This document shows, piece after piece, positions 22,034 to 63,588 of a stretch of DNA of 64,000 nucleotides. The notes beneath the pieces are model-generated. The model made no database searches, was not told the DNA's origin, and saw nothing but the letters and a program-made list of their open reading frames with translations. A program made the position numbers and the translations under genes. Position 1 is the stretch's first letter. Every line of letters begins with the position of its first letter. Origin of the DNA: Chrysomallon squamiferum (taxonomy: Eukaryota > Animalia > Mollusca); contig CM022679.1 in NCBI GenBank assembly GCA_012295275.1, forward strand, positions 12,586,001 to 12,650,000, in the 5' to 3' direction.

Positions 22034-22909
22034 GCTACTGATTTATTTTATTCCTCAATTATGAAGGTGAATCAATCTCGTTCGACGGAAGTGAAGGTCG
22101 TAATTTGCCAAAAACTGATTCTGTTTCTTCTTTCGTATAAGGTTCCGTGATTAGTAAAGCACTACTTTTGCAGTAATTTATAATAGTTACAGTTTTAATT
22201 TATTGAACAATTTTCAAATTTTACATTATTTCTTACGCTTGCAGACCCATCACAAATTGTAAATGAATGAAGCATAAATAATCTGAAAAAAATCCTGGAA
22301 TATATCTATACCTGCACGTCTGTCTGACTACCTATCTACCCAGTAAATCATACATCGTACGTGCTTATATAAATTATAATACATACAGATATATATAATA
22401 CATGCATAGACATATTTACAGAATGCAAACAGAACATTACAGATAAACATAATTATATAAAATACTGTTTACATTATATTCATCATAATTTACATAATTA
22501 CCATATAATACTAATATTAATATTTAAGACTGCAACAACTTATTTTTATTCATTTTCAGTATTATATATTTATATCAATTTTTCTTATTATTATTACTCT
22601 CGACGTATGGTTGTTTTTAAACCTCTTGATAATTATTGCCTATTTCATATATTTGTTCGATAGTTGAAAACATTACTTGCATGAGTTTGTTAAGAGTTGC
22701 TTGCCCATTCATCCCATTGGAGAACGACATTCAAAAATAGTTAATAAATCACATATTGTAAGTTGTGGTGTAGCTTTTTTATCATATTAATTACACATAT
22801 GTCAAGTACTATTATTAAAATATTAAACAGTAAATATAGCAGATAGTCGTAATATAGCACGTTTTACGAGCCTCATTTTCGATAAGCCTTTCCGCTTGTG
22901 GTCGTCATC
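22034..22909. promoter_or_regulatory. Divergent (bidirectional) promoter region between NDUFB10 and RPL3
   Basis: 876 bp separate the two start codons. An ETS/GABP-type CGGAAGTG lies at 22086-22093. A polypyrimidine TCT/5'TOP-like CCTTTCC lies at 22887-22893, just before the RPL3 ATG. Confidence 0.65.
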
Positions 22910-25900
22910 ATGGTAAGACGTGTTAATTTTTTAGTTTCATAATCGTATGCCATCTGCGTGCAGTTTTGAGTTAATTTGAATAGATTTGTGTTTTAAATAG
23001 TTATTACATTCCTTTGCATTAATTTTTAATAAGTAATTAATGTAATTTCTTATCTGTTTTCCTTTTAGTCTCACCGAAAATTTTCTGCCCCTCGCCATGG
23101 TTCTAAAGGCTTTCTGCCTAAGAAGAGGTCCAAGAGACATAGGGGCAAAGTCAAGGCTTTTCCTAAAGATGATAAAACGAAACCTGTTCATTTAACAGCG
23201 TTTATAAGCTACAAGGCCGGTATGACTCACATTGTCCGTGAGGTTGATAGACCTGGATCAAGTAAGTTGAAAACAATTTGTAGGTATGTGGACAAAAAAT
23301 TCATTCACCACCAACTTCAACATAAATAACATTGCTGAAAAGAACTCTAAAAACCCTGTCAAAGACGACAAACATGTGATTCTGTTGAGTATTAAGGAAG
23401 TTACAGCATTTTACCGTTTTCAATTAACACAAATTAATTGTTCTATCATTTACTGCATTTGCATTACAGTGGCGTGACCAAAATCCTATTGTTTTTCACT
23501 AAAATGCATGTAACTTTCTTAATCAAATTTTATTAGTGAAATTTGGACTGAAGATAGATGGTATCTAGTTCTCTCAATACAAGCTATTAAAGGTGCAATA
23601 TAAATAATTATTAATACAGCAGATTTTAATTAGCCTAATTTGGCAACTTCAGTTAACTGAAAAAGTTATAACAAGAATTATTGTAGATAATGTCACGCAG
23701 TCCTTAATGAGACATTTTATACAGACCTCATTCCAAAAAATGTACTGGGTTGATAAATAAGTCATTGCAGTTCATAACTGATTCATATTTATAGCAGAGG
23801 CATCAAAAATTTAACTGTTGGGAAGAAGTGGTAAATAACAACGGAGAATACATTATTGATTAAATTACACCTTGTTATCAATTAAGCTTAAGTTTTCTTC
23901 TATGTAATGATTATATTTAGTTTAACTGCAATGGCTTATTCCTCAACCCAATATTTACATAGTCAAATCATCGGAAATAAGGTCTGCAGCCAATTGGAAA
24001 ACAGACGTATCAAAGTCAGTTGCATCATCATGTTTCTGTCTGTGACCAGTATGCTACAACACACTTACTTCCCTTAGCCTTCATCTTTTCAATTCTGCCA
24101 TTGTAAAGAATCTGGCGCCCATCTTCAAACCATACATGACAAATGTTACATCCAACAGATTTGCCTTCCAACAATTCCTGGAGTTGATCCTGCTTACCAT
24201 CAGAAAGCTCAGGAAATTCCTCACCAATCTTAGCAACCTTAACAGTTTTCAGTTTCTTCTCTAGCTTTTTCCTCACAGATGTCTCTCTTGTTTGATGTTT
24301 GTCAGTTTGTCTCTTTGATAATTCTGCTCTCAACTCATTCTGCTTCATTCTTCTCTTCTGCCTTTGTTTCTGACCTACCTGTACAGCCTTCATGAGAATC
24401 ATATCTCTCCTCTCCTTTTCTAAACCATCTAGATAGGCCACAGTTTTATTTTTTTGTGCCCTCAACTTACTTGAGATAGCAAACAGTTGCATTAGCCGCC
24501 TTCTGTTTTGCAGCATTGAACATGCCCACCATCTCTTCAGCATCCATATTGTGAGACCTAGCACTTTCAGTTTCTAGTCTCAGCCTCTCTGTGATCTTCC
24601 AGTCATCTGAAAAAAAATTCTTATATTGCCGCTCAAGGACATCGACATTGGCTTGAAGACATGCTTTCATCATGTCACTGAAGATGGTCCCATCCTTGGG
24701 TGGCTCCTGTAATTTGAGAAGGGTTTTATCTTCAACTTGATGAAGCTGGTTACCAAAAAAATCTGTTTCACACGCCAGGAGATCCATTGGTGCGTCCATC
24801 TGGTCCTTCAGTTTTTGGATGATCTATTTAATGACTTGGATCCCCTCTACATGATCAGTCTGGTCCACTGCAGCAGTGTAAAAAAAATTCATCCAAGTGC
24901 CAGTTAACATCTTGCCTAACAGGCCTAACACCTGCATCTCAACCTTACCTGTTACTGACACAAAGTCAGCCAAGACACTAGCACGCAATCCATCACACAC
25001 TGTACCGTGTTCAAGGTATTTCTTGAACAACGCATGATGCTGAGTATATATGCCACATATATGAAACAGAACATGCAAACGATTACCCCGATACCTGAGA
25101 ACAATCCCCTGAGGCAGGTTGTGGTCATCAAGAAGTCTTGAACCCCTGGGGATCACCCTTATTGTTTTTAAAGTGGAGTTTGTTCATCTATTCAATGATG
25201 TTGGATGCACATCAATCATTTCACCAAATCTGTCCCTTTGCACCCCCTTCACATTCCTTGAGTGCTGTTCTAGCTTTTGTGGCTGAGTCCAGTGGGTGCT
25301 GATTGGCAGTTGAACTCGTTCAAAGTCTTGGCCCAAGAAACATTCACTAACTGTATTGCAGCATGGTTTGCTGCACACCGATCAGTAAGACTGTTGGTTA
25401 TGTTTGAAATTAACCCCTGGCGTATGGTTTGATAGTCTTTATCAAAGAAATGACAGTACACCAGGGCCAAGTTATCAACTGAATCACAGATGTGCTCGTG
25501 ATAATCATTGGCTGTACCTCCAGGTAACTGATTGGCAGCAACATAGCAATCGGCATGGGTGGTGATGTGTATGCTATTCAAATGACCTCCGCCTTGTGTC
25601 GTGGCGTTGAGTCCTTATTGTCTAAAATAGCTTCTGCAGTTTGAAGATCGCTTATTGCCCCAAGTTCTCTTACCATTGCTTCTACTGTAGTCCTGTGTGG
25701 AACAATAGCATCAAAAACGTTGAATCTCATTTCAGGAGAATAAGTCCTCCCATCGGACTTGGTTTGTTCAACAAAACCCTCCAGCTCTTTTACCCTATCT
25801 TCTAGCATTAGTTTGTTGTCTTGGAGCTGGAGGATTTCCTCCCTTCCTGCCAGTTTCCTTTCCAATACTTACTCTTTCATCATCAGTCTGGGATAGAAAC

Positions 25901-28900
25901 ATTAGTTTTCTTTATTTTGTGGTATTTCTTAATTTGCTGATGTTTCTTTTCTAAAGTTGATATGATACTTGTAGCTTTTCCCAGACCTTCAGCAAGCAGA
26001 AGAATCCAGCTGCGATTTTACTTTGGATAATTGCCCTTCTTTTCTCTTGATTTTTTGATTTAGTCTCTTTACTGATTCAAACCTTCTCTGATGGCGCTTG
26101 GCCATCATATTACGTACCTTAATCCAATTCTGACATTTTAAGAGATCCTGTTTCTGTTTGGCAAATTGCAGACTTTCATGATATCTCTCAGTTATGGCAC
26201 TGATTTTCAGTGGGGACACAGCAACAGGCTTGGTACTGGGAAGAACAATGGCATATTCTTCATCAGCCTGAGGGACTTCCACTGGCTGGATAATACATGA
26301 CATAACTGTGGAAATAGTACTGGTCAGGTTCAGCTGATCAAAACTTTCGTGACAAATGGAATCAAACATACTGAATTCCACAGTGTCGTTGAGTTTCTTG
26401 AACTTGTTCAAAGTGTTGTCAACAAGTTTTTGAATTTGTGATGTAATATAATTCAAAACTGTATTTCTCTGATGACCAATAATATTATTGGGGATATATG
26501 ACTGAAGTTCTCTAAAGGTCTTCAAACGGCTTTTTTCACAGCGAAAGACAAAAATAAACAATACATGACCATTTAAGAAATTCACCAAAGAAACTGGAAT
26601 TCCATTGGAAAAGTTCTCTTCCAAGTGTTGGTTGGCTATACCAGTCCTTGGATTGGGGGATTTTCTTTTCCGCTTCAAGTTAGGCATCCTGAAAAGAAGA
26701 CCAACATAATGATTACTAAATTTCAAAATTAGTTCATACCGATTGGCTGAAGACACTCGCAAAATCCACAATCATCCACTATTTACAATCCATCGGGTAG
26801 AAAGTGTGACATAGAGTTCCGTCGTATATTTATACAGCATCACAATGTGTTCTATCACTCATTTATCAAACCTAATACTGAAATTGAGGGTAGAAATCAC
26901 TTCAGTTTCACTCAAATTTTTATCCGCCATGTTTGATTTTGAAGCCATTTCGATTTTACAGCTCGTCTTCCCGGGGTTCATAAACTATCTCAGCTATGTC
27001 AGATTTCAATATAAATTCAGATATAATAAAATTAATATTGTTCTTCCACTTACCTTAGATTATCCTCAGATATTGAAAACGACCGATTTTAATGTTGAAT
27101 ATGAGAAAAAATACACATTGTATTGCTCCTAATTAAGACCGGCAACACCTTTCTGGAGGATTATACAAGTTTAAAAGTCACAACATTTAATAAAACATGC
27201 ATCCTACAAGCTATTAAAAATATAATCAACATAGATTATAGAAATATGATCATTTCAAATAGCATCAGTTATTTGTAGTTGCACATAAAATCTGCAGCAA
27301 CTTAACTAGGTAGGAAACAATTTACAGCTATTGTAAATAAAATCAATGTGATTTCGGTCTGTAGAAAATTTCACTAAGCACATGCTAAAATGTACATGCT
27401 GAAAATAAGAACATTCAAGAAAAACGTACAGCAAACATGTTATTAAAATTAGAAAAATATAATCATATTAAAAGCAACACACCTTTCTAGTTGTACATAC
27501 AGCAATTTCGGTAGGGTAGAAAGCGTACTTAACGGCGATTTCCCTGTGCACGTGCTATAATGTACATGCTGAAAATAAGAACATTCAAGAAGGAAAAACA
27601 CACGTTACTAAAAATATAAACAACATAGAAATATAATCATTTTCAACAGCTCCAGACCTTTCTAGCACATTTTAAAATTAAAATGCAAGCAACCACACAT
27701 GTATATACAATATTTTATTAAAAATGTTAGGTCAATTTGTCGACAAATTGACCTTTCTAACTGTACATAAAATTTACTAGAATTCATAAAACTAAATATA
27801 TAGTTAGGATCATCTTCAATTAGATCTGCAGCCAGAGCATGGATGTTCATACAGTGGTCTACTGCATCTGCATACGATTCATTTGCTCCCCAGTAGTCTA
27901 CAACCTATTTCTTACCTTTGCATGTAATCTTCTATCTTTCCATTGTATATTGTTCTTTCTCCATCATCAATCCACATATGCCAAATCATGCTACCCACTG
28001 AATTCCCAGATAATCTGAGATATCCAAGAATTCAACAGTCTGTCCATGTCTACGCTTTTCAATCTTTTCTCCAATCTGTTCCTCTCTGTGGTTTCCTTTG
28101 CCTGCAGCTTCTGTACCTGTCTCCTGTTTTGTTCTTTTCTCAGATTTTTCTGCTTGGTACGCCTGACCTGTCTGTGTTGTTGGCCCATGTGGATCGCTGT
28201 TTTAATATGATCTCTTGACTCCCTGTCTAGGGCATCAAGATAATCCACTGTCCTGTTTTTTATGGCCCTCATTTTACATGAGATGTAGCAGAGAGTAGAA
28301 TTAGGGGATTTCTTGTGTAAGGAACTAAACATCCCCATGATCTCTTCTGCATCAATGTGTTGACATCCATCCGACCTCGACTCATCCCTCAGTCGCTCGG
28401 TGAAATCGCAGTGGAAGTATCTGTTGTACTGCCGCTCAAGGACAACAACTGTTGCAGCCAAACAACTCTTCATCATGATTGTAAGCAGGGAGATGTCTTC
28501 AGTTGCTGCCTGGAGAATTTCCAGAGTTGGTTCTTGCAAAAGTGTATGTCCATGACAATGTCTCTTCAGGGGCCTGTGCACTGACTTTCAGTTTGGCAAT
28601 AACTTGCTTAACCAGCTCAGTGCCCTGAATATGGTTTACTTATTCTGGGGCAACCGCTGATCAGTAGAACTCTGTCATCCAAGGACCACTGAGCAGTTTC
28701 CCATTAAGTCCAAGCACCTGCATTTCCACTTGTGCAGGAACAGACACAAAGTCTGCTAGGATGCTATGCTGTAAACCACCACACGATACATCCCGTCTGC
28801 AGAAAACTCATGAATAAATTATGGAAGCGAGTGAAAACACCACATATATGAAAAAGGATATGTAGGTGGTTACCTCTGTATCTGGGCAAGATCCCACATG

Positions 28901-31900
28901 CGAAGTTTTCGTGGTCTAGAAAAATGGTGAAACCACGAGGATCACCCTTGCTATCCATAAACCTCATTTTGTTCATCTGCACTACTATGTTTCCAGCCAA
29001 AGAGTCTATCTCTTTACGTTTCTTTTCTATTCTCATTTCTGCTTTACATGTTTTTGTTGGAACTGAGTCCAATGGATGTAAATGTCAATTTAATTCATTG
29101 AGTGTTTTGCTCCACGTTTCATTCAGAAGCTGAATTGCAGCATGATTTGCAGGGCATCGATCAGTAAGGGTATTGGAAATATCAGAAATTATTTTTGTTC
29201 TTGCAGTTTGATAATCATCCTCATGAAAGTTTGAGTAAGTTATTAATGGAGTCAGATATGTGTTCATGATAATCATCAGCAGTCCCACCAGCCAGTTCAT
29301 CAACTGCAGCAACATAACAGTTCTCTGGTGTCGTAATGTGGGCACTGTTCACCATTGTGCCCTCTGTGTTGTGGCATCAAAATCAAGTGTGCAGTTTTTA
29401 TTCTCAATTAAAGCTTCAGTTGCCTGTAATTCAGTTATTACTTGTCATTGCCTCAGTAGTGGTTCTGTGTGGGATGTCATTCAGTGGAACATTTCGCAAA
29501 CAAAATTTCTGAACAAGAACGGATATATTGCTGGTTGGCACCTGATTTACAATGGCATCAAATACCATCATTCTTAGGTCTGCAGAATAGACCTTTCCAT
29601 TATATTTTGTTTTTTTGTTTACTAACTAATGAAGCTTTTCTTCCAGCAGGATTTTATCTCTCTGGAGATCAATTATCCCCATTTGTTTTATTTTTAAGTT
29701 CAGAAATTTTGTTTTTGGCAGATAGCAAAGTTTCCAATTCAGTTTTATTCTTTTTTTCACTGTGGTACTTTTTCAGTTTTTCATTGGGTTTTTTAAAGTT
29801 CGACAGCAGATTTTGCCTCATGCATAACCTTTGAAACAGTACTTTTTTCTTTAGGTTTTGCTATTTGTTCCTCTTTCCATCTGATTGTTTGGTTTAATAA
29901 TTTTACACATCCCTTTTTCTTCTGCTGTGTTCTCACATCTCAGATTGCAATATGTTTAAACCTTTGAAGCCGTAGCTGTTTTAGTCTCATATTTGTTAAG
30001 GAGTTATTTAATAACCTGCATGACTGGCAGTTTTTTGTTTGTCTGGTTTTCATGGGTGGTTTTGTCAATATTTGAATGGCAGATTCCTCTGAATCTTCTC
30101 CCCAGTATGAACTGCTATCCAATCAATAGTGTGGTTCTGGGGAAGCAGTAACATATTGTGGGTTGCAACTCGGTCCAGGTTGGGGCTCATTTTGTTTTCC
30201 TGGTACATTCTCAAGATTCTACAGATTTCTGTGAGGAAAAAAATTTCAGAACATAAACACATAAATTTGGTAAATTGTACAGCACAAGCCAGATTTCAAA
30301 ACTTAACAAACTGGTACATAACTTTCTTTTCTTCAGCAGAAAGTCTCAACACAGTAGGGTTAGGAGTTAGTGACAAATGACTACATAATTCACTAACTGT
30401 TGTTGCTCGACTGTTACCACAGCTAGTGTAAATATAAAGCACATGTCCTTTCAAAAACTCATCTGTTGCAGGAACTGTGGAATACTTTTCTTGCAGATGC
30501 TGTCTAGCTAAGCTCGGTTGGTTACATCTAATTAGGCACCGTTTCTTTTTACTCAAAGGCATCTTTTGGTTATTCACTGAAAAAAACAAGATAAGAGCTG
30601 AGAAGACAACTGAAATAAGTTTTAAAAATAGTTGAAATTATGAAGGACATTATTACCAAAATGAAACAGCAACTGTGTGGGTCAAACCAAACACTGAAAA
30701 AAAAAAAAAAAATCAATTGTATGAAAAGAAATGCAGAATTTTTGCTGGAATCCCCCAGAAATAATGTAAAAAAAGCCATGAAAAGCAAGCAAATGGTGCA
30801 CATCCACATGCAAGATATGGGCAAAATTAACAGGCCAATTGGTGCACTATTATCTGTACACTTAAATAATGTACAGATGCAGAAACAAGTTCTGTATTAT
30901 AAGCTGTATCTAATCTGTGACTTTAAAAATAAATGTTTTGCCCTATTTCATTGAGAATAAGCTAGAAATGTTCAGTAATATTTAAAGGACATTTTTCTTT
31001 CTATCTCAGTCCCAAGAAGCCATGGAATAATTGCTTATTTTCTTAGTTTTTCAATTTTACCACTGTACATTAGTTTCTCGAATGCCCTGTCACATGATTG
31101 CCTTTCCATCCACTAGAACCCTAAGACTGTCAGTAGTATCCTGCTCAAAATGTGGAAGGTTTCTTTCCTTCGGAAAAAATGCTAGCTGCACATTTTACAT
31201 TGTACCAAGATCTGGTTTCACTTGCCATCAGACCTACTTTGAATACAGACATTTCAGGCATTTAGCTCGAGTATATTTGTTTTTACATCTAATATTCTTT
31301 ACATGCCTATTAGATAGTTTAATGATCACTGACCAGTTACAGATAGCTGAAGATACATCTTTCTCTCTATTAAGTCCTGTAAGTATTTAATGAAAGGTTA
31401 ATCCTTTTCTGTAGTTTGTCTTAGATGAACAAATGCTGGCCTTTTGTATTGTAAATTAAAAACTTACATAATTTTCACTTGCCAGAGGTCAACAAGAAAG
31501 AAGTTGTGGAAGCTGTAACCATTCTTGAGGCCCCTCCCATGGTCTGTGTTGGTATTGTTGGTTACATTGAAACACCCCGTGGACTGCGTACCTTCAAAAC
31601 TGTGTGGGCCGAGCATCTGAGTGAAGAGTGCAAGCGACGTTTCTACAAGAACTGGTAAATTTTAAAGCAGTGATAAACTAACTAATTTGTTCAGTCCTGT
31701 TGAGCATAAAACTGTCATTCACATAGGAAACAGTATTTTTTAAAGTTTTAAGTAATGAACTTCAGAAAAAATTAACATTAAATGTCTGAAGACTTAATAT
31801 CTTTGATGGTGCAAGGAATCAGGGAAAAAAAATCCTATGATTACATTAGTAAATTAACTTCTAGCCATTTATATTGTATTTAAAATATTCTGGTTTGAAA

Positions 31901-34489
31901 TCTAAAAAGAACAAGCCTCTCTGACCTGCTGTAATTTAAGTGTTGCATGCACTTAACAAGATTCAGGAACTTTCTTTCTGTAGCTCTGGTATTTTCCATT
32001 TTGTGTATGTTGGAAAGATAGAAAAAACTTTTTGCAATTCTGTTTTTTATTTAGATATATATGTGTGTGTATGTTTCGATTATAGATATTTTAATTTGCT
32101 AATTCGCTTAGAAAGTATGTTGTAGGTCACATGACCAGCTTTGTACATCATTGCTCCTCTCAGCCTTTGGCTGATGAGCATTTCGTTCGTTTTTGTCTCC
32201 GCTCACAAGACAACTTGTGATGAGACGTTAATAAATTTGTCGTACCAAGGTCCCGCTCCAAGAAGAAGGCTTTCACCAAGTACATCAAGAAGTGGCAGGA
32301 TGATGCTGGCAAGAAGCAGATTGAGAGAGATTTGTCTAAGATGAAGAAGTACTGCAAAGTGATCAGGATTATTGCTCATACCCAGGTAATTACAGATTCA
32401 TCCTTATACATAAATAAAATTCATCATAGATAACTACAGGCTATACATTTTTTTTTTTTTATTAGTTGAAATAATTCAATTTATATAAAGTATAAATGAT
32501 TAACTAGTATGTGCCAGTGCAGCCTGGATTATTTCCCTTGAACAAAATCTTTAGATTAACTTTCCTTTCTAAAGTTGAAAATTATTATTTATCCATATGA
32601 AGCATGCTATTAAAATTAGATCTATTAAATCAAAATTTTCACAATAATAAATTTTTCTGGAAACAAAAGGCAGTTTTGTTTCACCTGTTGTCCGTTACTG
32701 ATAATTTATTTCCATTGTATTAGCTGATAAAATTGTTCAAATTGTTTCAGACTAAACTGCTGCACAAGCGCCAAAAGAAGGCTCATATCATGGAGATCCA
32801 GCTGAATGGAGGCTCCATCTCGCAGAAGGTTGACTGGGCTAAGGAGCACCTGGAGAAGAGTATTGCAGTGAATCAGATTTTTGAACAGGATGAATTGATG
32901 GACGTTATTGCCGTGACAAAAGGACGAGGAGTTAAAGGTCAGCATTTATACGTTTATAAAATAATTTTAATATTTTGATTTAAATAAATTATATTTTTAT
33001 AATAAATTATAATTCAAAATTTTGGTTTTTCATTTTGTCGCAAATGGTTTATCTACTATGTAACCAATAGAATAAATAATATAAAAAAAAATGCAGTATA
33101 CAAATTTGATATTCTGAAAAGATGTTTATAATGCACATGATGAAATCACATGGACTGTCTCCTGCCAGAGACAAACTGAAACTTCACTGTTGAGCAAAAC
33201 CATGTTGCCTTCCTTCTGATGCTACATACTGTGCTGTTCGTGAAATTTTAAAGTGATACATGTTTCCTTCGTTATATTCAGGTGTCACCAGCAGATGGCA
33301 TACCAAAAAACTGCCAAGGAAGACCCACAAAGGTCTGCGAAAGGTTGCCTGTATTGGAGCCTGGCATCCAAGTCGAGTTCAGTACTCGGTGGCCCGAGCT
33401 GGTCAGAAAGGTTACCATCACCGCACTGAGATCAACAAGAAGGTCTACCGCATCGGCAAGGGGGTGCACACCAAGGACGGCAAGATCATCAAGAACAACG
33501 CCTCCACCGAGTTTGACCCAACCGACAAGACCATTACCCCACTGGGTGGATTCCCTCACTACGGTGACGTCAGAAACGACTACGTGATGCTGAGAGGATG
33601 TGTACCTGGGCCAAAGAAGCGGGTTATTACACTGAGAAAGGTTTGTCATTGAAAGATGCAGCAATTGCCTTGACATTTTTTTAATACTTGGTTGTTTACA
33701 ATCTGTTATGTACTTGGGAGATTTTTGATGTAAAGAGAGCTATAGGTTAGGGTTTTGTTTCTATTTTACTTTCTGTTACCAGTGTGTTACTGTGGCTTTA
33801 CTAGGAATGTTGACATGTTTTTCAGTCTCTGCTGGCTTCCTTCCGACGTCGCCACATGGAGAAGATCACCCTGAAGTTCATCGACACGTCCAGTAAATGG
33901 GGACATGGCCGCTTCCAGACTCACGATGAAAAGAGAACTTTCATGGTAAACACAACTTTTATCTTTTGTTGGTTTTACACACCAAGTGATAACCCCGATA
34001 ACCAACAGACAGATTGACCAAAACAAACGAGATCAGTCCAATACATGTTTTGATTAGGTTGTCTAATGAAATGTTTTAAATGATTGTAAAGGCACGTGAT
34101 GAAGAACATGGTTTGACCCCTGCCAGGGTCATCTGATAAAACATGTTGAACTGTCCATGTTGCCTTCCTTCTGATGCTTACAATCAAATAAAATTTAATC
34201 AGACTTTAAAATGTAAGTGTGTAGCAGAATACTGTATTTTAGAAGTATTAGTTAGGAACTGAACTGGATATATGAGAAAAACGCTAAAGTGAGTCCCAAT
34301 GTTTGTCAGTGTGCAGATACATGAACTGTTAGTCCCAGCACAATTTCTGACTTGATTTTAGTTTTATTGTTGAACAGATAAACCATCTTGATAGACTGCA
34401 TAGATTAATTTGACTTAACAATTTGAATTTTTTAATTACAGGGTCCACTGAAAAAGGAAATTATGAAGAAAGAAGGAATTGTGGCCTAA
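22910..34489 (+). CDS. RPL3: 60S ribosomal protein L3 (uL3), 404 aa; exons 22910-22912, 23069-23261, 31486-31654, 32250-32385, 32751-32937, 33282-33640, 33826-33945, 34442-34489
   Basis: [22 protein letters not shown]...[30 protein letters not shown]...[14 protein letters not shown]...[13 protein letters not shown]...[24 protein letters not shown]...[16 protein letters not shown]...MGPLKK. Exons total 1215 nt, in frame. AATAAA at ~34507. Confidence 0.98.
23955..26687 (-). mobile_element. Decayed DNA-transposon transposase gene A (RNase H DDE with CxxH; hAT/MULE/P/Kolobok supergroup) in RPL3 intron 2
   Basis: Fragmented ORFs in order: basic N-terminus, coiled coil, [16 protein letters not shown] (HTH-like), [16 protein letters not shown] (first Asp region damaged), [12 protein letters not shown] (second Asp), NEFNC..HPLD (CxxH, frameshifted), [24 protein letters not shown] (Glu). 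Several frameshifts and stops. Confidence 0.75.
27790..30562 (-). mobile_element. Decayed paralogous transposase gene B, head-to-tail with A in RPL3 intron 2
   Basis: Same motif order: [91 protein letters not shown]. Many stops and frameshifts. Confidence 0.75.
32152..32226 (+). promoter_or_regulatory. Twin RNA hairpins just upstream of the RPL3 exon 4 acceptor (candidate splicing autoregulatory element)
   Basis: TGCTC-CTC-TCAGCC-TTT-GGCTGA-T-GAGCA (32152-32180) and GTCTC-CGC-TCACAAG-ACAA-CTTGTGA-T-GAGAC (32195-32226) share the same 3x1 internal loop with different flanking stems. The function is inferred. Confidence 0.55.
33133..33222 (+). ncRNA. SNORD83: Box C/D snoRNA, SNORD83-like (guide for the 18S rRNA A equivalent to human Am468), RPL3 intron 5
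   Basis: C box ATGATGA at 33137-33143, D' CTGA at 33176-33179, D box CTGA at 33216-33219. The D box is preceded by TGCCTTCCTT, complementary to the conserved 18S AAGGAAGGCA. Terminal GCA/TGC stem. Vertebrate RPL3 hosts SNORD83A/B. Confidence 0.88.
34092..34177 (+). ncRNA. SNORD83: Second SNORD83-like box C/D snoRNA, RPL3 intron 7
   Basis: C box GTGATGA at 34096-34102, D' CTGA at 34133-34136, and the same TGCCTTCCTT guide before D box CTGA at 34171-34174. Extended flanking stem tgattgtaa (34081) / ttacaatca (34186). Confidence 0.88.
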
Positions 34490-37400
34490 TAGACATTTTC
34501 AACAAAAATAAACCAGTTGAAAATCTATTTGTAGTTGTTCATCTTTATATGAATATAATTATAGTGCTATTTTGGGGGGCTTTGTTTGTAATATCAAAGA
34601 TCAAAAGTAACCAATATAAATTCAATTATATTCATTTAATGTTGTACTTTAAACACCAGTGACATTAGATGTATTGCTTTTTAAACAAATACTGTTTAAT
34701 GTAGAACTGATTCTTTTTCTTATCACATCTGTAAACTGAATACACATGATTGCTATAGTATTTTATTTATGGGTGTTTTCAGGTTGTTCCTTGTGTTTGT
34801 GTATAATGGCAACTTAGTTTATATTAGTCGATATTTTAAATGTTAAAAACGAAATGCTTTTGTAATCTATATAATGGATTAACGTTTTATAATGGTGTTT
34901 GCTGGGTATCCATTGGAAGCAGTATTGTCTGCTTTGTTTATCAAAAATAAAGCATGTTGCAAGAAAAAAATCGGGTAGAAAATCCATAGAGAAGAAATGC
35001 AGATGAATGGTTTGGAAATTTTTTAGAACAATTTTTTTCCAATTTTCCAACACATGCGTAATTACATACTAAAGATAATATCTACACCAATATTTTATTG
35101 TATCTTTCTGTAGATGGAGAAAAAAAGTTGCAATGTATCTATTTTAAAATCGAGGTATCATTGTTAAATACGACATTTGGGAAAAAGGAAAAAACATTGA
35201 CCATTTTATCAGTTAAAAATAAAGCTGCAGTCGTATAATCCGTCGCTGGTATCAAATATCGAATGCTATTCAAGCCTGTTCATGTGGAACACGCTCTTCA
35301 AATCACAATTGCTAATGTACGTTAACAAGCCTACACATCTAATTTATGTATTTAGTTCCAGTTGTGCATTGTACACGATCATTTTGTTCTGCTTGACAAG
35401 TGCGATCAGAGATCGACAGATACGAACTGTTAAAGAATGATTCTGGCACAAACACAAACGTTCATTGAGCCGGTCACGATTTCTTGTACATACCGGATCA
35501 GGCTTTGACCATTCGTATTTTGCGTGACATCAGTGAGGGTTAGGTGGGGTTTTTATTATTATTATTATGATTATGATTTTAAATTTATTATTATCATTAT
35601 TTATTTATTTATTTGTCCTTATTTAATAAAAAAAATAATAATAATAAATATATAAAATATTAAACTGAAATGTCGCTGGGCAAAGTAAATATTCATTTTA
35701 TCAAATATTAAGATACTTAAACATAGAAAATTAATTAAATTAAATCGAACGCAAGATGTTCAGTTGTTGTTTACTGGTAGATAAGTTTTATTTGTTTATT
35801 TTTATAGGTTTAATAAATTGTAAAACGAGTAGGAGCGATTACACATATTAAATTACAAGTCTAACATTGAAGGCGCGATCACGTTTTTGAAATTCTCACA
35901 GAGTGTACCATGTTAACGTTCCTGGCGCCATATAAATAAACCTGTGACTATTAACAAGTCTTCATCTCTTAGGTTCAAGTTCTCAAATCACAGATATGAT
36001 CTGAGTAACTGGCTTATTCCTTTATTATACAGTTTCAATACGCGATTGGCTGAAGGACCAAGTAGTTTTACAGAAACGATAAACATTTTAATATGACACT
36101 GGAAAAAAAAAAAAAAATGTTTTTACCTACTATAACAGTTACAAGAAATAACACAAGCAATTTCACAAAATAAACACTTTATCAAAAGAAAGAAAACAAA
36201 ATTATAGTTGATTTGACCTCTTTTTTTTATTTGTCATTTTTCTTTAAGTAAATACAGTAACATGGGCTTTTACATGCTTATAATGGTGTATTTGCTAACC
36301 TTTTTTTTTAAATGGCTGCAATGATATGATAAAATACCAGAGAGGTTTTCGAGTGGCTGCCTGTAATCTTAGTGTAAGTTTAAGTAGGATTTGGGTAGCT
36401 GTCTATTGTTGATTAATATCCGTAATCTACATATATTTTATGTTCAGAGAAGGTACAGTGCAAACGAGGAATGCTATTGTTCGCAATGCAAATTTCAAAC
36501 ATGTCTACACGTATATGACAACGAGGGTCGGAACGTCACTTTTGGTCAGAACATTAATTTCACTTGTAGACAGTATCTACAAGTTTTCGATTCTTCAACC
36601 GTGTTTTCTCTACACGAGGAAGAAATTATTTGCTTTTACAAAAATTACTGCGGTAATACTTAAAAGTCGTTGTAAATAAATTTAGATAGTAGCACTGAAT
36701 AACTTGCACGATAATTAAATACTTAAATAAAATGTTAATAAATCAGCAATGGGATGTTTCTAATTGTTGTTGTCGTTGTAGATGTTGTTATCGTCCTTCT
36801 TCTTCTTCTTCTGCATTATTATTATTATTATTATTATTTTATCAGTTTAAAAACCAATCTGTCCTAGCCATAAAAAAAAATATAATAATAATTTTTTTTT
36901 TTTTTAAAACAGAAAAGAAAACCAAAACATTTGAGGCAGAATTATTTTTTACTTTGTTCTGTATTGATACAAGAGCTTTGCCACTGATTTTGTTTGTTTA
37001 ATGTCTTTATGTGTCATTTGTTAGAGGTTTTTCTTTACCGCTATTCCATTTTTTTTTTTTTTTTTTTTTTTTTATTATTATTTAACGTCTTTACGATTAC
37101 ACAGTAAGTCAGAACGGAAAACGAAACCTTCATGACATGCCGCGTAATAGTATTGTCATACTTTATTTTTAGCAAAGGATGATTTAAAAAAAAAAAGGAG
37201 CAAGTTAAAATAATAAAACGGTTTATTATTATTTTGTTTCTAGAATAATAAAAAAATCTCTCTCTAAAAAATAATAATAATAATAATAATAATAAATGTA
37301 ACGAGTAAATTATATAGCACTTCGAACAGTTTTAATACCCTTCAATAACCTACGTGCATGCTTTACTGCGAAAGTTGATATCACCAGCTAAAGGCGTTTT

Positions 37401-46126: not shown

Positions 46127-46187
46127 CTGAATGTTTTAATTACTACAATTATTATTATTTTTTTTTTTCAGAGAGGACAACAGCGAG

Positions 46188-47690
46188 ATGCCTACTGATA
46201 ATTTCAAATCAAAATTAGCCTGGCCACCTGCACCGGCGAGTTTGTCGAACCCGGTGAAAAACGACTTTCCCGTTCACTTAAAGAATGTCGATCTTCTGCA
46301 GGAGCCTAAAAACGTGAGACTGTCGAACGCTTTGTTTTATTCGATTTTGAAAGGACGCCTACAGAAAACTAAATTCTTGCTAGACCAGGGCATCAACGTC
46401 AACGCTCGCAACGACCACGGGTTTAGTCCCCTGGTGGCCGCGTTGCACATCGACAAACTTTCTTTACGACGTAAACTATTTCGTATGCTCTTACAACATG
46501 GCGCTAACCCGCTGGGGCGAGATGTACCAAGCAACAGAGACGTTTTATCTTGGGCCGCTTTGCTGGGCCGCTGTGAAGAAGTGCAGATTCTTCTGGATGA
46601 TTTCGGAGGAGACATTCACCTCACCGATTTAGACAAACATGGGTTTTCTGCTCTCCACTACGCCACGCATTCTAACAGTTTAGATACTGTTCGAAGCCTC
46701 ATCGCCATATATAACAAATACAACATATCAGTGGATATTCAAGATCGCCAAGGAATGACGCCGTACGCTCACGCCAGGCGACTGGGACATAGTGAGGTCG
46801 CAGAAGTGCTGAGGAAAGAAGGAAACGCGTCCACCGGGCACGCAGATAATATTAATTTCAAAAGTCCCAGAGAATGGTCTCAGATAGGAAGGTTCGAGCG
46901 ACAACTAGACGAATACCAGTTAACGAAGAAAGAAATGGACAGAGCGAGACTGCTTGGCAGGATTAACAAAGCAAAGGCCCTCAGAGATCTGACGCTACAG
47001 AACGTAGTGCCAACACTGGCTTTGTTTCAGGATCAGGTTTCTTCCAGTCTCAAGTCTGATGCGTCTTCTGATTCTGCCGAAAAGAAAGGACGTCAGATTA
47101 ACGGGTTTGACTTTCTTTCTAGTCGTGACAACAAAACCAAAGATTCTGATAGACAAGTGAAGAGTGTGTGCGCGTTTCCTTCAAACAGATTCAAACCGAA
47201 GAAGGAATATGCAGACAAATACAGTCCTATGCCTTTAGATATGTCTTTCGATGATAACGATGCTCAAAGCGTAAAAACACGGTTTTCCAACAAAGCGGCT
47301 TTAAATTTGCTGGCCATGACGTCAGACAAAGGTAAGGTGGTTGCTAGGTTTCACAGTAGCGAAGTGGACAAATCAAAATCTTCTCAGTACCATGGCGACA
47401 ATGTCAATAACTTCCTGAACATACTCTCTGATCAGACATCGTCCTCGTATCGACAGTCTGTGACTGTCCCGCCCCCCCGGGCGCCAACCCCGCCTGTTCT
47501 CAAACGTAAGAAAAATAAGAGCAAAGTTTCGAGTTTGGCCATCATCATGGGACGACAACGAAGCGGAAACAAGAGGCGAAAACAGCCGAATCATTCCAAA
47601 ATTAATGAACTGCGAAAGAATAAGAAAACGAAAAACAAATCAAAGAATTTTCTACTACCTGATATAAAAATCAATGACCGCGCTGTCTGA
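46188..47690 (+). CDS. Ankyrin-repeat protein, ANKRD63/ANKRD34-like, single coding exon, 500 aa
   Basis: About 5 N-terminal ANK repeats (GINVNARNDHGFSPLVAA, LLQHGANP, DKHGFSALHYA, VDIQDRQGMTPYAHARRLGH) followed by a disordered Ser/Lys-rich tail with PPPRAPTPP. Splice acceptor ttttcag at ~46171, just before the ATG. Confidence 0.88.
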   Translation: MPTDNFKSKLAWPPAPASLSNPVKNDFPVHLKNVDLLQEPKNVRLSNALFYSILKGRLQKTKFLLDQGINVNARNDHGFSPLVAALHIDKLSLRRKLFRMLLQHGANPLGRDVPSNRDVLSWAALLGRCEEVQILLDDFGGDIHLTDLDKHGFSALHYATHSNSLDTVRSLIAIYNKYNISVDIQDRQGMTPYAHARRLGHSEVAEVLRKEGNASTGHADNINFKSPREWSQIGRFERQLDEYQLTKKEMDRARLLGRINKAKALRDLTLQNVVPTLALFQDQVSSSLKSDASSDSAEKKGRQINGFDFLSSRDNKTKDSDRQVKSVCAFPSNRFKPKKEYADKYSPMPLDMSFDDNDAQSVKTRFSNKAALNLLAMTSDKGKVVARFHSSEVDKSKSSQYHGDNVNNFLNILSDQTSSSYRQSVTVPPPRAPTPPVLKRKKNKSKVSSLAIIMGRQRSGNKRRKQPNHSKINELRKNKKTKNKSKNFLLPDIKINDRAV

Positions 47691-55067: not shown

Positions 55068-57351
<2,284 letters not shown>

Positions 57352-62637: not shown

Positions 62638-63588
62638 GTGTATGCATGTATGCATGTACGTATGTATATATATCCCTCTAGTAACATAAACCTATTGTTT
62701 TACTATTTTAGGCGCTTTCAGATACGTCTACGAAAATTACTACGACGATGCTGATTGGTTCATGAAGGCTGACGACGATACTTACGTCATAGTCGAAAAC
62801 CTGCGATACTTCCTATCCAGTCAGGACACGAATCTGCCGATCTATTTTGGACACAAATTCAAGAAAATGGTCCCCCAGGGGTACTTCAGCGGAGGTGCTG
62901 GATATGTTCTAAGCAGGGAGGCTTTAAAAGTGTTTATAGAGAAAGGATCCAATCAGACGATCTGCAAACAAGATGGCGGCGCTGAAGATGCAGAGATAGG
63001 GAAGTGTATGGCCAAACTGGGCGTCATTGCGGGAAACTCAACTGACACGTTAGGCAGGAGCAGATTCCATTGCTTCGATGCAGAGACTCATCTGTTTGGT
63101 GGATATCCTAAATGGTATTACAACTACGACGCCTCCGGAGCTAAGCAGGTAAATAACCTAGATAATACGATGTGGGATAAATTTGTAACATATCGTTTTG
63201 GGGCTGAAGAGCTGTCACGTGTTAATCAGGTAATCGTTACGTCACTATTTATGTCGATTCAAACATGTCCGAAGATTACCGAGTCTGTGATTTTCTGATA
63301 GGGGTCTTGGGTTTCTTCGTGTATGTACGACAGAAGGCCACAATTATTGTTAAATGAGTATATTAGCCAATGAGTATCGTTGCCAAAGATTAGCCAAAAA
63401 AAAACGATATAGACCTATCTCTGGCGGAGAACCAGCGATATCCAGTCAGATGTTCGTCTGAGCTGTTCTACGCCAGAGAATACTCGGCTACTCAGCTAAT
63501 TTGTCATTTACAAAAATCATTGAAAATATTAAAACTGTTAAAATTAAATATTTATATATTTTCGTTATATATTTAGGTGAATGGATAT

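Follow-up and report, generated by a model that had tools for sequence, protein, structure and literature searches.

Twin hairpins beside the weak acceptor of RPL3 intron 3, a conserved element and a likely site of uL3 feedback

Two adjacent hairpins near the 3' end of an intron in a ribosomal protein (rp) gene raise the question of whether they serve as a switch through which the protein controls the splicing of its own message. The hairpins lie in intron 3 of RPL3, in the window (the whole 64-kb stretch of DNA that was analysed here), and an earlier note had proposed them as an autoregulatory element. According to the gene model, the window contains a complete RPL3 (uL3) gene on the + strand, whose 8 exons at 22910-34490 give a 405-codon ORF and whose intron 3 is placed after CDS nt 365. 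The nearest named relative of the encoded uL3 is that of Gigantopelta aegis (90% over exon 5; 93% over 229 residues), and the two are sisters in the tree with support of 99/93, which makes the host a gastropod close to that vent snail. Human RPL3 intron 3 presumably follows c.365 as well, i.e. the same position, and the claim that the window intron is orthologous to the autoregulated human one was upheld. Retention of intron 3 leads to an immediate in-frame TAA at 31656. The features of this part of the gene are as follows.

31486..31654, + strand: RPL3 exon 3, 169 nt, ending at CDS nt 365 in phase 2 (gene model and a spliced contig joint in run X1)
31655..32249, + strand: RPL3 intron 3, 595 nt, GT..AG (contigs and gene model)
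32250..32385, + strand: RPL3 exon 4 (gene model)

Elsewhere in the gene, intron 2 (window 23262-31485) measures 8.2 kb, which is very long for an rp gene; several open frames of 114-260 aa on its minus strand, richer in GC and without a Pfam match, are probably decayed mobile elements. At 22887-22912 a pyrimidine-rich CCTTTCC stands directly 5' of a first exon that is short and ends in ATG, and fits, as expected, a TOP-type rp promoter. Further along, the window carries an ankyrin-repeat open frame at 46140-47690 (+) and two Fringe-like/galactosyltransferase frames at 56227-56883 and 62690-63298 (+), which look like tandem paralogues.

Structure prediction agreed with the description of two adjacent hairpins near the 3' end of intron 3, which fold as had been claimed.

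32152..32180, + strand: hairpin 1 (HP1), with a lower stem, a 3x1 loop (CUC at 32157-59 facing U32175), a 6-bp upper stem and a UUU apical loop
32181..32194, + strand: linker between HP1 and HP2, which varies within and between species
32195..32226, + strand: hairpin 2 (HP2), with a 5-bp lower stem, a 3x1 loop (CGC at 32200-02 facing U32221) and a 7-bp upper stem

HP1 and HP2 share the core CTC-CNC-TCA...TGA-T-GAG, which forms a 3x1 internal loop; the loop and its flanking pairs are common to both hairpins, whereas the outer stems and apical loops differ. The predicted fold energies are -12.8 kcal/mol for HP1, folded over 32153-32179, and -13.4 kcal/mol for HP2. Predicted pair probabilities reach 0.95-1.0 throughout HP2 and 0.87-1.0 in the upper stem of HP1, and for the HP1 lower stem they are 0.66-0.67 in one context, with 0.94 for the loop-closing pair in another. 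Based on the gene model and the fold, HP2 ends 23 nt before the start of exon 4, in line with the distance given before. When no motif letters were fixed, twin hairpins sharing any core appeared in 0/2000 shuffles of the intron and in 0/5000 shuffles of its last 150 nt, and the intron-3 pair was the sole twin hairpin sharing a core in the 64-kb window. The fold of the region as a whole has z = -2.57, and 5/200 shuffles were equally good.

Orthologous introns were sought in one metagenome scan, using a pattern that linked CTCA...TGATGAG to exon-4 codons and returned 10 loci. This pattern fixed part of HP2 (CTCA and TGATGAG); the orthologue set is therefore motif-biased, and a match of that part is not independent. 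Three of the 10 loci (L002, L003 and L009) are animal RPL3 introns at the same position and represent 2 species, L003 being a duplicate of L009 (1705/1709 identical). At L001, L004, L005, L007, L008 and L010 the pattern was met by the coding sequence of RPL3 genes that do not have this intron, and L006, which had no RPL3 match, was dropped. Of the L002 gene, only exon 4 and the 3' portion of the intron are present. In the tree, the L009 uL3 is sister to that of the bryozoan Bugula with support of 100/99, which points to a bryozoan as its probable host, and the L002 species, placed via P0227 (identical over the 40 available residues), is left unplaced outside the mollusc clade. Pairwise uL3 identity among the three species is 73-76%.

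Both L002 and L009 have HP2 and an upstream HP1 at nearly the spacing of the window: the end of HP1 lies 69, 75 and 76 nt from the acceptor in the window, L002 and L009, respectively, and the end of HP2 22, 32 and 21 nt. The HP2 core CTCCGCTCAC...GTGATGAG is identical in the three species. Its CTCCG letters, which were free in the search pattern, also match (P about 9e-4 and 6e-4), and the HP1-like unit, equally free, was matched in quality by 27/5000 and 56/5000 shuffles. An unbiased pattern built on the exon-4 junction gave 0 matches in genome contigs and viral contigs, a protein-based search of the viral contigs found no RPL3 locus, and the same kind of search in genome contigs found 5 RPL3 loci, none of which has an intron at c.365. 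Separately, L011 (1-563) and L012-L015 are eukaryotic RPL3 sequences inside prokaryotic assemblies, i.e. contamination of those records; L011 is an intronless vertebrate-like RPL3 cDNA fragment in a Paracoccus assembly.

Alignment of the six hairpins from the three species revealed that 96.3% of 54 cells are paired and that 6/9 stem pairs change on both sides, in a structure derived from these same sequences; several of the double changes stem from a single hairpin, HP1 of L009. Covariation over the six hairpins was 0.63, compared with 0.22 in shuffled alignments (0/500) and at most 0.105 when the alignment was slid. The loop letters C, C and U and the closing C-G pair are invariant in all six, giving the consensus 5'-C[CNC]Y-3'/5'-R[U]G-3'. 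For HP1 of L002 the 3x1 register has a predicted probability of only 0.04, and a slipped register wins. A covariance model made from these hairpins matched, in the window and the loci, its own training hairpins alone, the next best match being coding sequence with E=0.096. Polymorphism within the 74-nt element was also examined: 5/6 SNPs fall in the linker or apical loops (P=0.008) and the sixth preserves a G-U pair. We give this placement little weight, because SNP density in the core (1/52) is not lower than in the upstream intron (12/498) and equals the intron background. The claim of a repeated internal loop stands, as the loop is conserved, covarying and beside a weak acceptor in the three species of the motif-biased search. 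Based on these comparisons of sequence, the twin hairpin is a real, conserved cis-element in orthologous RPL3 introns of at least two phyla as placed by the tree.

Other structures were predicted around the hairpins. A long-range stem between window 32138-32146 and 32242-32251 would enclose both hairpins and draw the productive AG into pairing (unpaired probability 0.05). Conservation of this stem is not evident, and L009 and L002 instead extend the lower stem of HP2 over the branch-point region. A small upstream hairpin showed no conservation in the three-species alignment.

32125..32136, + strand: small predicted hairpin GGUC-ACAU-GACC, -3.8 kcal/mol, spanning the 32126 junction

For the splice sites that the element might govern, we scored acceptors with a coarse PWM trained on the 11 constitutive RPL3 acceptors, so that the scores of those 11 are in-sample.

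32247..32249, + strand: productive 3' splice site AAG, weak (joint 31654>32250; PWM)
32123..32125, + strand: TAG, the earlier note's candidate poison acceptor, exon start 32126; weak and without read support
32161..32163, + strand: CAG in the 5' arm of HP1, exon start 32164, which would add 86 nt with a first stop TGA at 32342 (PWM)
32099..32103, + strand: CTAAT, branch-point-like, a candidate only, upstream of the element (motif scan)
32228..32232, + strand: TTAAT, candidate branch point of the productive acceptor, at the foot of HP2 (motif scan)

The productive acceptor scored -2.9, -0.9 and -2.0 in the three species, against 2.2-5.6 (in-sample) for the 11 constitutive sites. Its weakness is largely due to the AAG, which is followed by G; the accompanying remark about little pyrimidine tract was overstated, as 11/20 pyrimidines is the same as in two constitutive acceptors of this gene. 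The candidate branch point TTAAT starts 2 nt after HP2 and becomes CTAAT in the T32228C allele.

RNA contigs were compared over 31300-33390, with 3/4 RNA runs and X5 (probably DNA) represented and X2 without a contig. The only joint in the RNA contigs is the productive 31654>32250, found in run X1 at depth 142, which confirms the productive acceptor. No alternative intron-3 joint, including 31654>32126, occurs in the RNA contigs of this interval, contigs being prone to drop rare isoforms, and intron-3 contigs of runs X1 and X3, at depth 3-4, run unbroken through 32126 and 32164. These low-depth contigs are compatible with a retained or slowly spliced intron, and could instead be DNA carry-over or ordinary pre-mRNA. 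The other RPL3 introns have no RNA-contig cover, which carries no weight because the exons there are uncovered as well.

The earlier note favoured the TAG at 32123-32125 as the poison acceptor. Its arithmetic is right, in that this site would add 124 nt with a first stop TGA at 32172; however, 32126 has a PWM score of -4.8, below the productive site. The stop at 32172 singles nothing out, because a premature stop follows from retention and equally from each of the 10 upstream AG candidates listed for the window, and the same is true of L002 and L009. The best-scoring alternative acceptor in the window is the CAG of 32164 (+3.6). A YAG is present in the HP1 5' arm of all three species; the HP1-arm site is also the best in L002 (+2.4) and is weak in L009 (-1.5), whose best site lies 148 nt upstream. 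One point against activation of the HP1 CAG is that uL3, by stabilising HP1, would hide it. We regard the 32164 CAG or intron retention as a better candidate than 32126. As the unproductive product itself, intron retention or slow splicing is tentatively favoured; the CAG in HP1 is possible, another upstream AG (e.g. 32055, 32112 or 32139) is more doubtful, and 32126 is the least likely.

Our preferred reading, to which we assign a probability of about 55%, is that the hairpins form a conserved animal RPL3 pre-mRNA element that binds surplus uL3 and blocks the weak acceptor, giving an NMD-bound form. Surplus uL3 would bind the two identical 3x1 internal loops of HP1 and HP2, and the bound protein would block the adjacent productive acceptor; the transcript would then acquire a stop codon, by intron retention or use of an upstream AG, and would be removed by nonsense-mediated decay. 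The block may be steric, with branch-point recognition hindered at the candidate at the foot of HP2. U2 snRNP requires the nucleotides immediately 5' of the branch point. According to the predictions the hairpins are for the most part pre-formed, and an energy bonus simulating a ligand at the loops leaves acceptor accessibility almost unchanged; in these models steric occlusion is likelier than refolding, and a refolding switch was not supported. Invariant unpaired letters between covarying stems, repeated twice, suggest recognition by a protein. By analogy, the likeliest ligand is uL3: the element lies in uL3's own gene and in the intron of human rpL3 feedback, and uL1 acting on L10ARE offers a precedent. 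We infer as likely, then, a protein that reads the loop, its identity as uL3, the steric block, the kind of unproductive product and NMD. More tentatively, the loop could be an ancient animal-wide uL3-binding motif arranged in tandem, a direct RPL3 sensor that human and nematode studies have missed; if so, it would amount to a minimal RNA ligand of free uL3.

The competing explanation that survives best, in our judgement unlikely, keeps the regulation of intron-3 splicing and has the loop read by a protein other than uL3 (a splicing factor, a different ribosomal protein or a uL3 chaperone complex), with uL3 feedback being indirect. The fixed loop letters imply a reader without naming it. In the accessible text of PMC3177206, the human circuit relies on hnRNP H1 acting on G-runs, KHSRP and NPM, and in that of PMC4937301, knockdown of one worm rp gene shifts the splicing of others. 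Yet within the 64-kb window the motif occurs only in RPL3 intron 3, and characterised rp feedback elements, L10ARE among them, are as a rule bound by the protein that their own gene encodes, as far as the accessible texts go.

It is less probable still that the hairpins are purely structural, hiding cryptic pyrimidine-rich AGs and setting a constitutive splicing rate without a ligand. HP1 does bury the best-scoring AG, with an unpaired probability of 0.34 in the window and 0.16 in L002, and even with no ligand present the predicted hairpins are largely formed. However, masking needs pairing only, which leaves unexplained an invariant unpaired CNC/U loop that occurs twice per gene in three distant species, as well as the identical HP2 core in L002, where the 5' arm contains no AG.

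A third explanation, which we consider very improbable, takes the region for a non-coding RNA housed in the intron, similar to a C/D or H/ACA snoRNA, or for a box C/D element acting in cis. RTGATGA is found in HP2 of all three species, and RPL3 hosts two U83-like snoRNAs in other introns. Nevertheless, no Rfam match at E<=1 (Rfam 15) was obtained in the element or in L002, L003 and L009. As a box C/D motif the region was rejected, since box C is not kept throughout and no CUGA partner follows the C-like box before exon 4; as an H/ACA snoRNA it was rejected on the missing H box (ANANNA) in the linker that would act as hinge and the missing ACA tail, the hairpins being only 27-38 nt. The UGAUGA letters are moreover Watson-Crick paired and change with compensation in HP1. 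A related suggestion, that the loop resembles a C-box or kink-turn, was not borne out. In a kink-turn, two stems are separated by an asymmetric internal loop, one strand of which has 3 nt, and tandem sheared G-A pairs follow. Kink-turns such as those of yeast RPL30 pre-mRNA and box C/D RNAs share with the RPL3 twin hairpins the asymmetric loop with its 3-nt strand between stems and UGAUGA on one strand. In contrast to them, the twin hairpins have no tandem G-A pairs, as the upper stem starts with U-A or C-G followed by C-G in 6/6 hairpins, and their UGAUGA letters covary and are lost in 2/6 hairpins with the pairing kept (RTGATGA in 3/6, TGATGA in 4/6). Finally, chance or neutral duplication without function is scarcely credible: three species from a biased search and a core without SNP depletion speak for it, but the shuffles (0/2000 and 0/5000) and a position and spacing that stay the same from phylum to phylum, together with compensatory changes, largely refute it.

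The C/D snoRNAs resembling U83 (RF01179) lie at window 33132-33223 and 34091-34178 (+), in RPL3 introns 5 and 7. With 27.8 and 32 bits they fall short of the gathering score of 50, and they have the guide TTGCCTTCCTT in common, placed ahead of box D. A comparable sequence in one of the late introns of L009 (about 1790-1865) received no Rfam score. Vertebrate RPL3 also hosts U83, and the host relation therefore looks ancient.

Like AS-NMD elements, the twin hairpin lies inside an rp gene's own intron beside a splice site, is conserved, and is accompanied by alternatives that give a premature stop. Among rp splicing autoregulatory elements, mimicry of the protein's rRNA site is common, though not universal. 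Both AS-NMD of RPL3 and the self-regulation of rp genes through intronic RNA are already known. When human rpL3 is overexpressed, use of a cryptic 3' splice site in its intron 3 increases, together with NMD, and the accessible text of PMC3177206 contains no direct binding of uL3 to the intron in its mechanism. According to the accessible text of PMC4937301 (Takei 2016), eight rp genes of C. elegans, rpl-3 included, show more productive splicing of their own transcripts when they are knocked down, uL1 makes direct contact with an element in its own intron, and the human, worm and fly RPL3 introns are orthologous, with no conserved stretch found for the rpl-3 intron. What seems new is the conserved tandem structural motif at the 3' end of RPL3 intron 3, for which no description was found in the literature covered; the same literature had nothing on SNORD139 or RNU86 together with RPL3, and PMC5640933 contains 0 whole-word mentions of rpl3. 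Feedback on RPL3 intron 3 is thus known in humans and worms, and a direct RNA sensor is absent from the accessible part of that literature. The motif offers a precise, mutable target, a 30-nt hairpin with a four-nucleotide loop. The recruitment of uL3 is a key early step of 60S assembly in the accessible text of PMC8536713, and a direct sensor of free uL3, if true, would link early ribosome assembly to the splicing of its own message.

Yeast RPL22 and RPL7B resemble the proposed circuit in that an intron structure is associated with inhibition of splicing by the gene's own product (accessible texts of PMC4838235, PMC13630204 and PMC12311795), but other proteins and motifs are involved, and RPL7B uses mutually exclusive folds, a refolding that is not predicted for the RPL3 element. 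Human RPL3 AS-NMD has in common with the window the gene, intron 3, the choice of 3' splice site and the premature stop; its published cis-elements are the hnRNP H1 G-runs, and "hairpin" occurs 0 times in the accessible main text of PMC3177206. L10ARE of RPL10A/rpl-1, as presented in the accessible text of PMC4937301, is likewise a short animal-conserved element in an orthologous rp intron that is associated with unproductive splicing. L10ARE, a sequence of 39-40 nt for which direct binding is shown, is flanked by alternative 5' splice sites, whereas in RPL3 a structural motif occurs twice at the 3' end of the intron, as a putative uL3 site.
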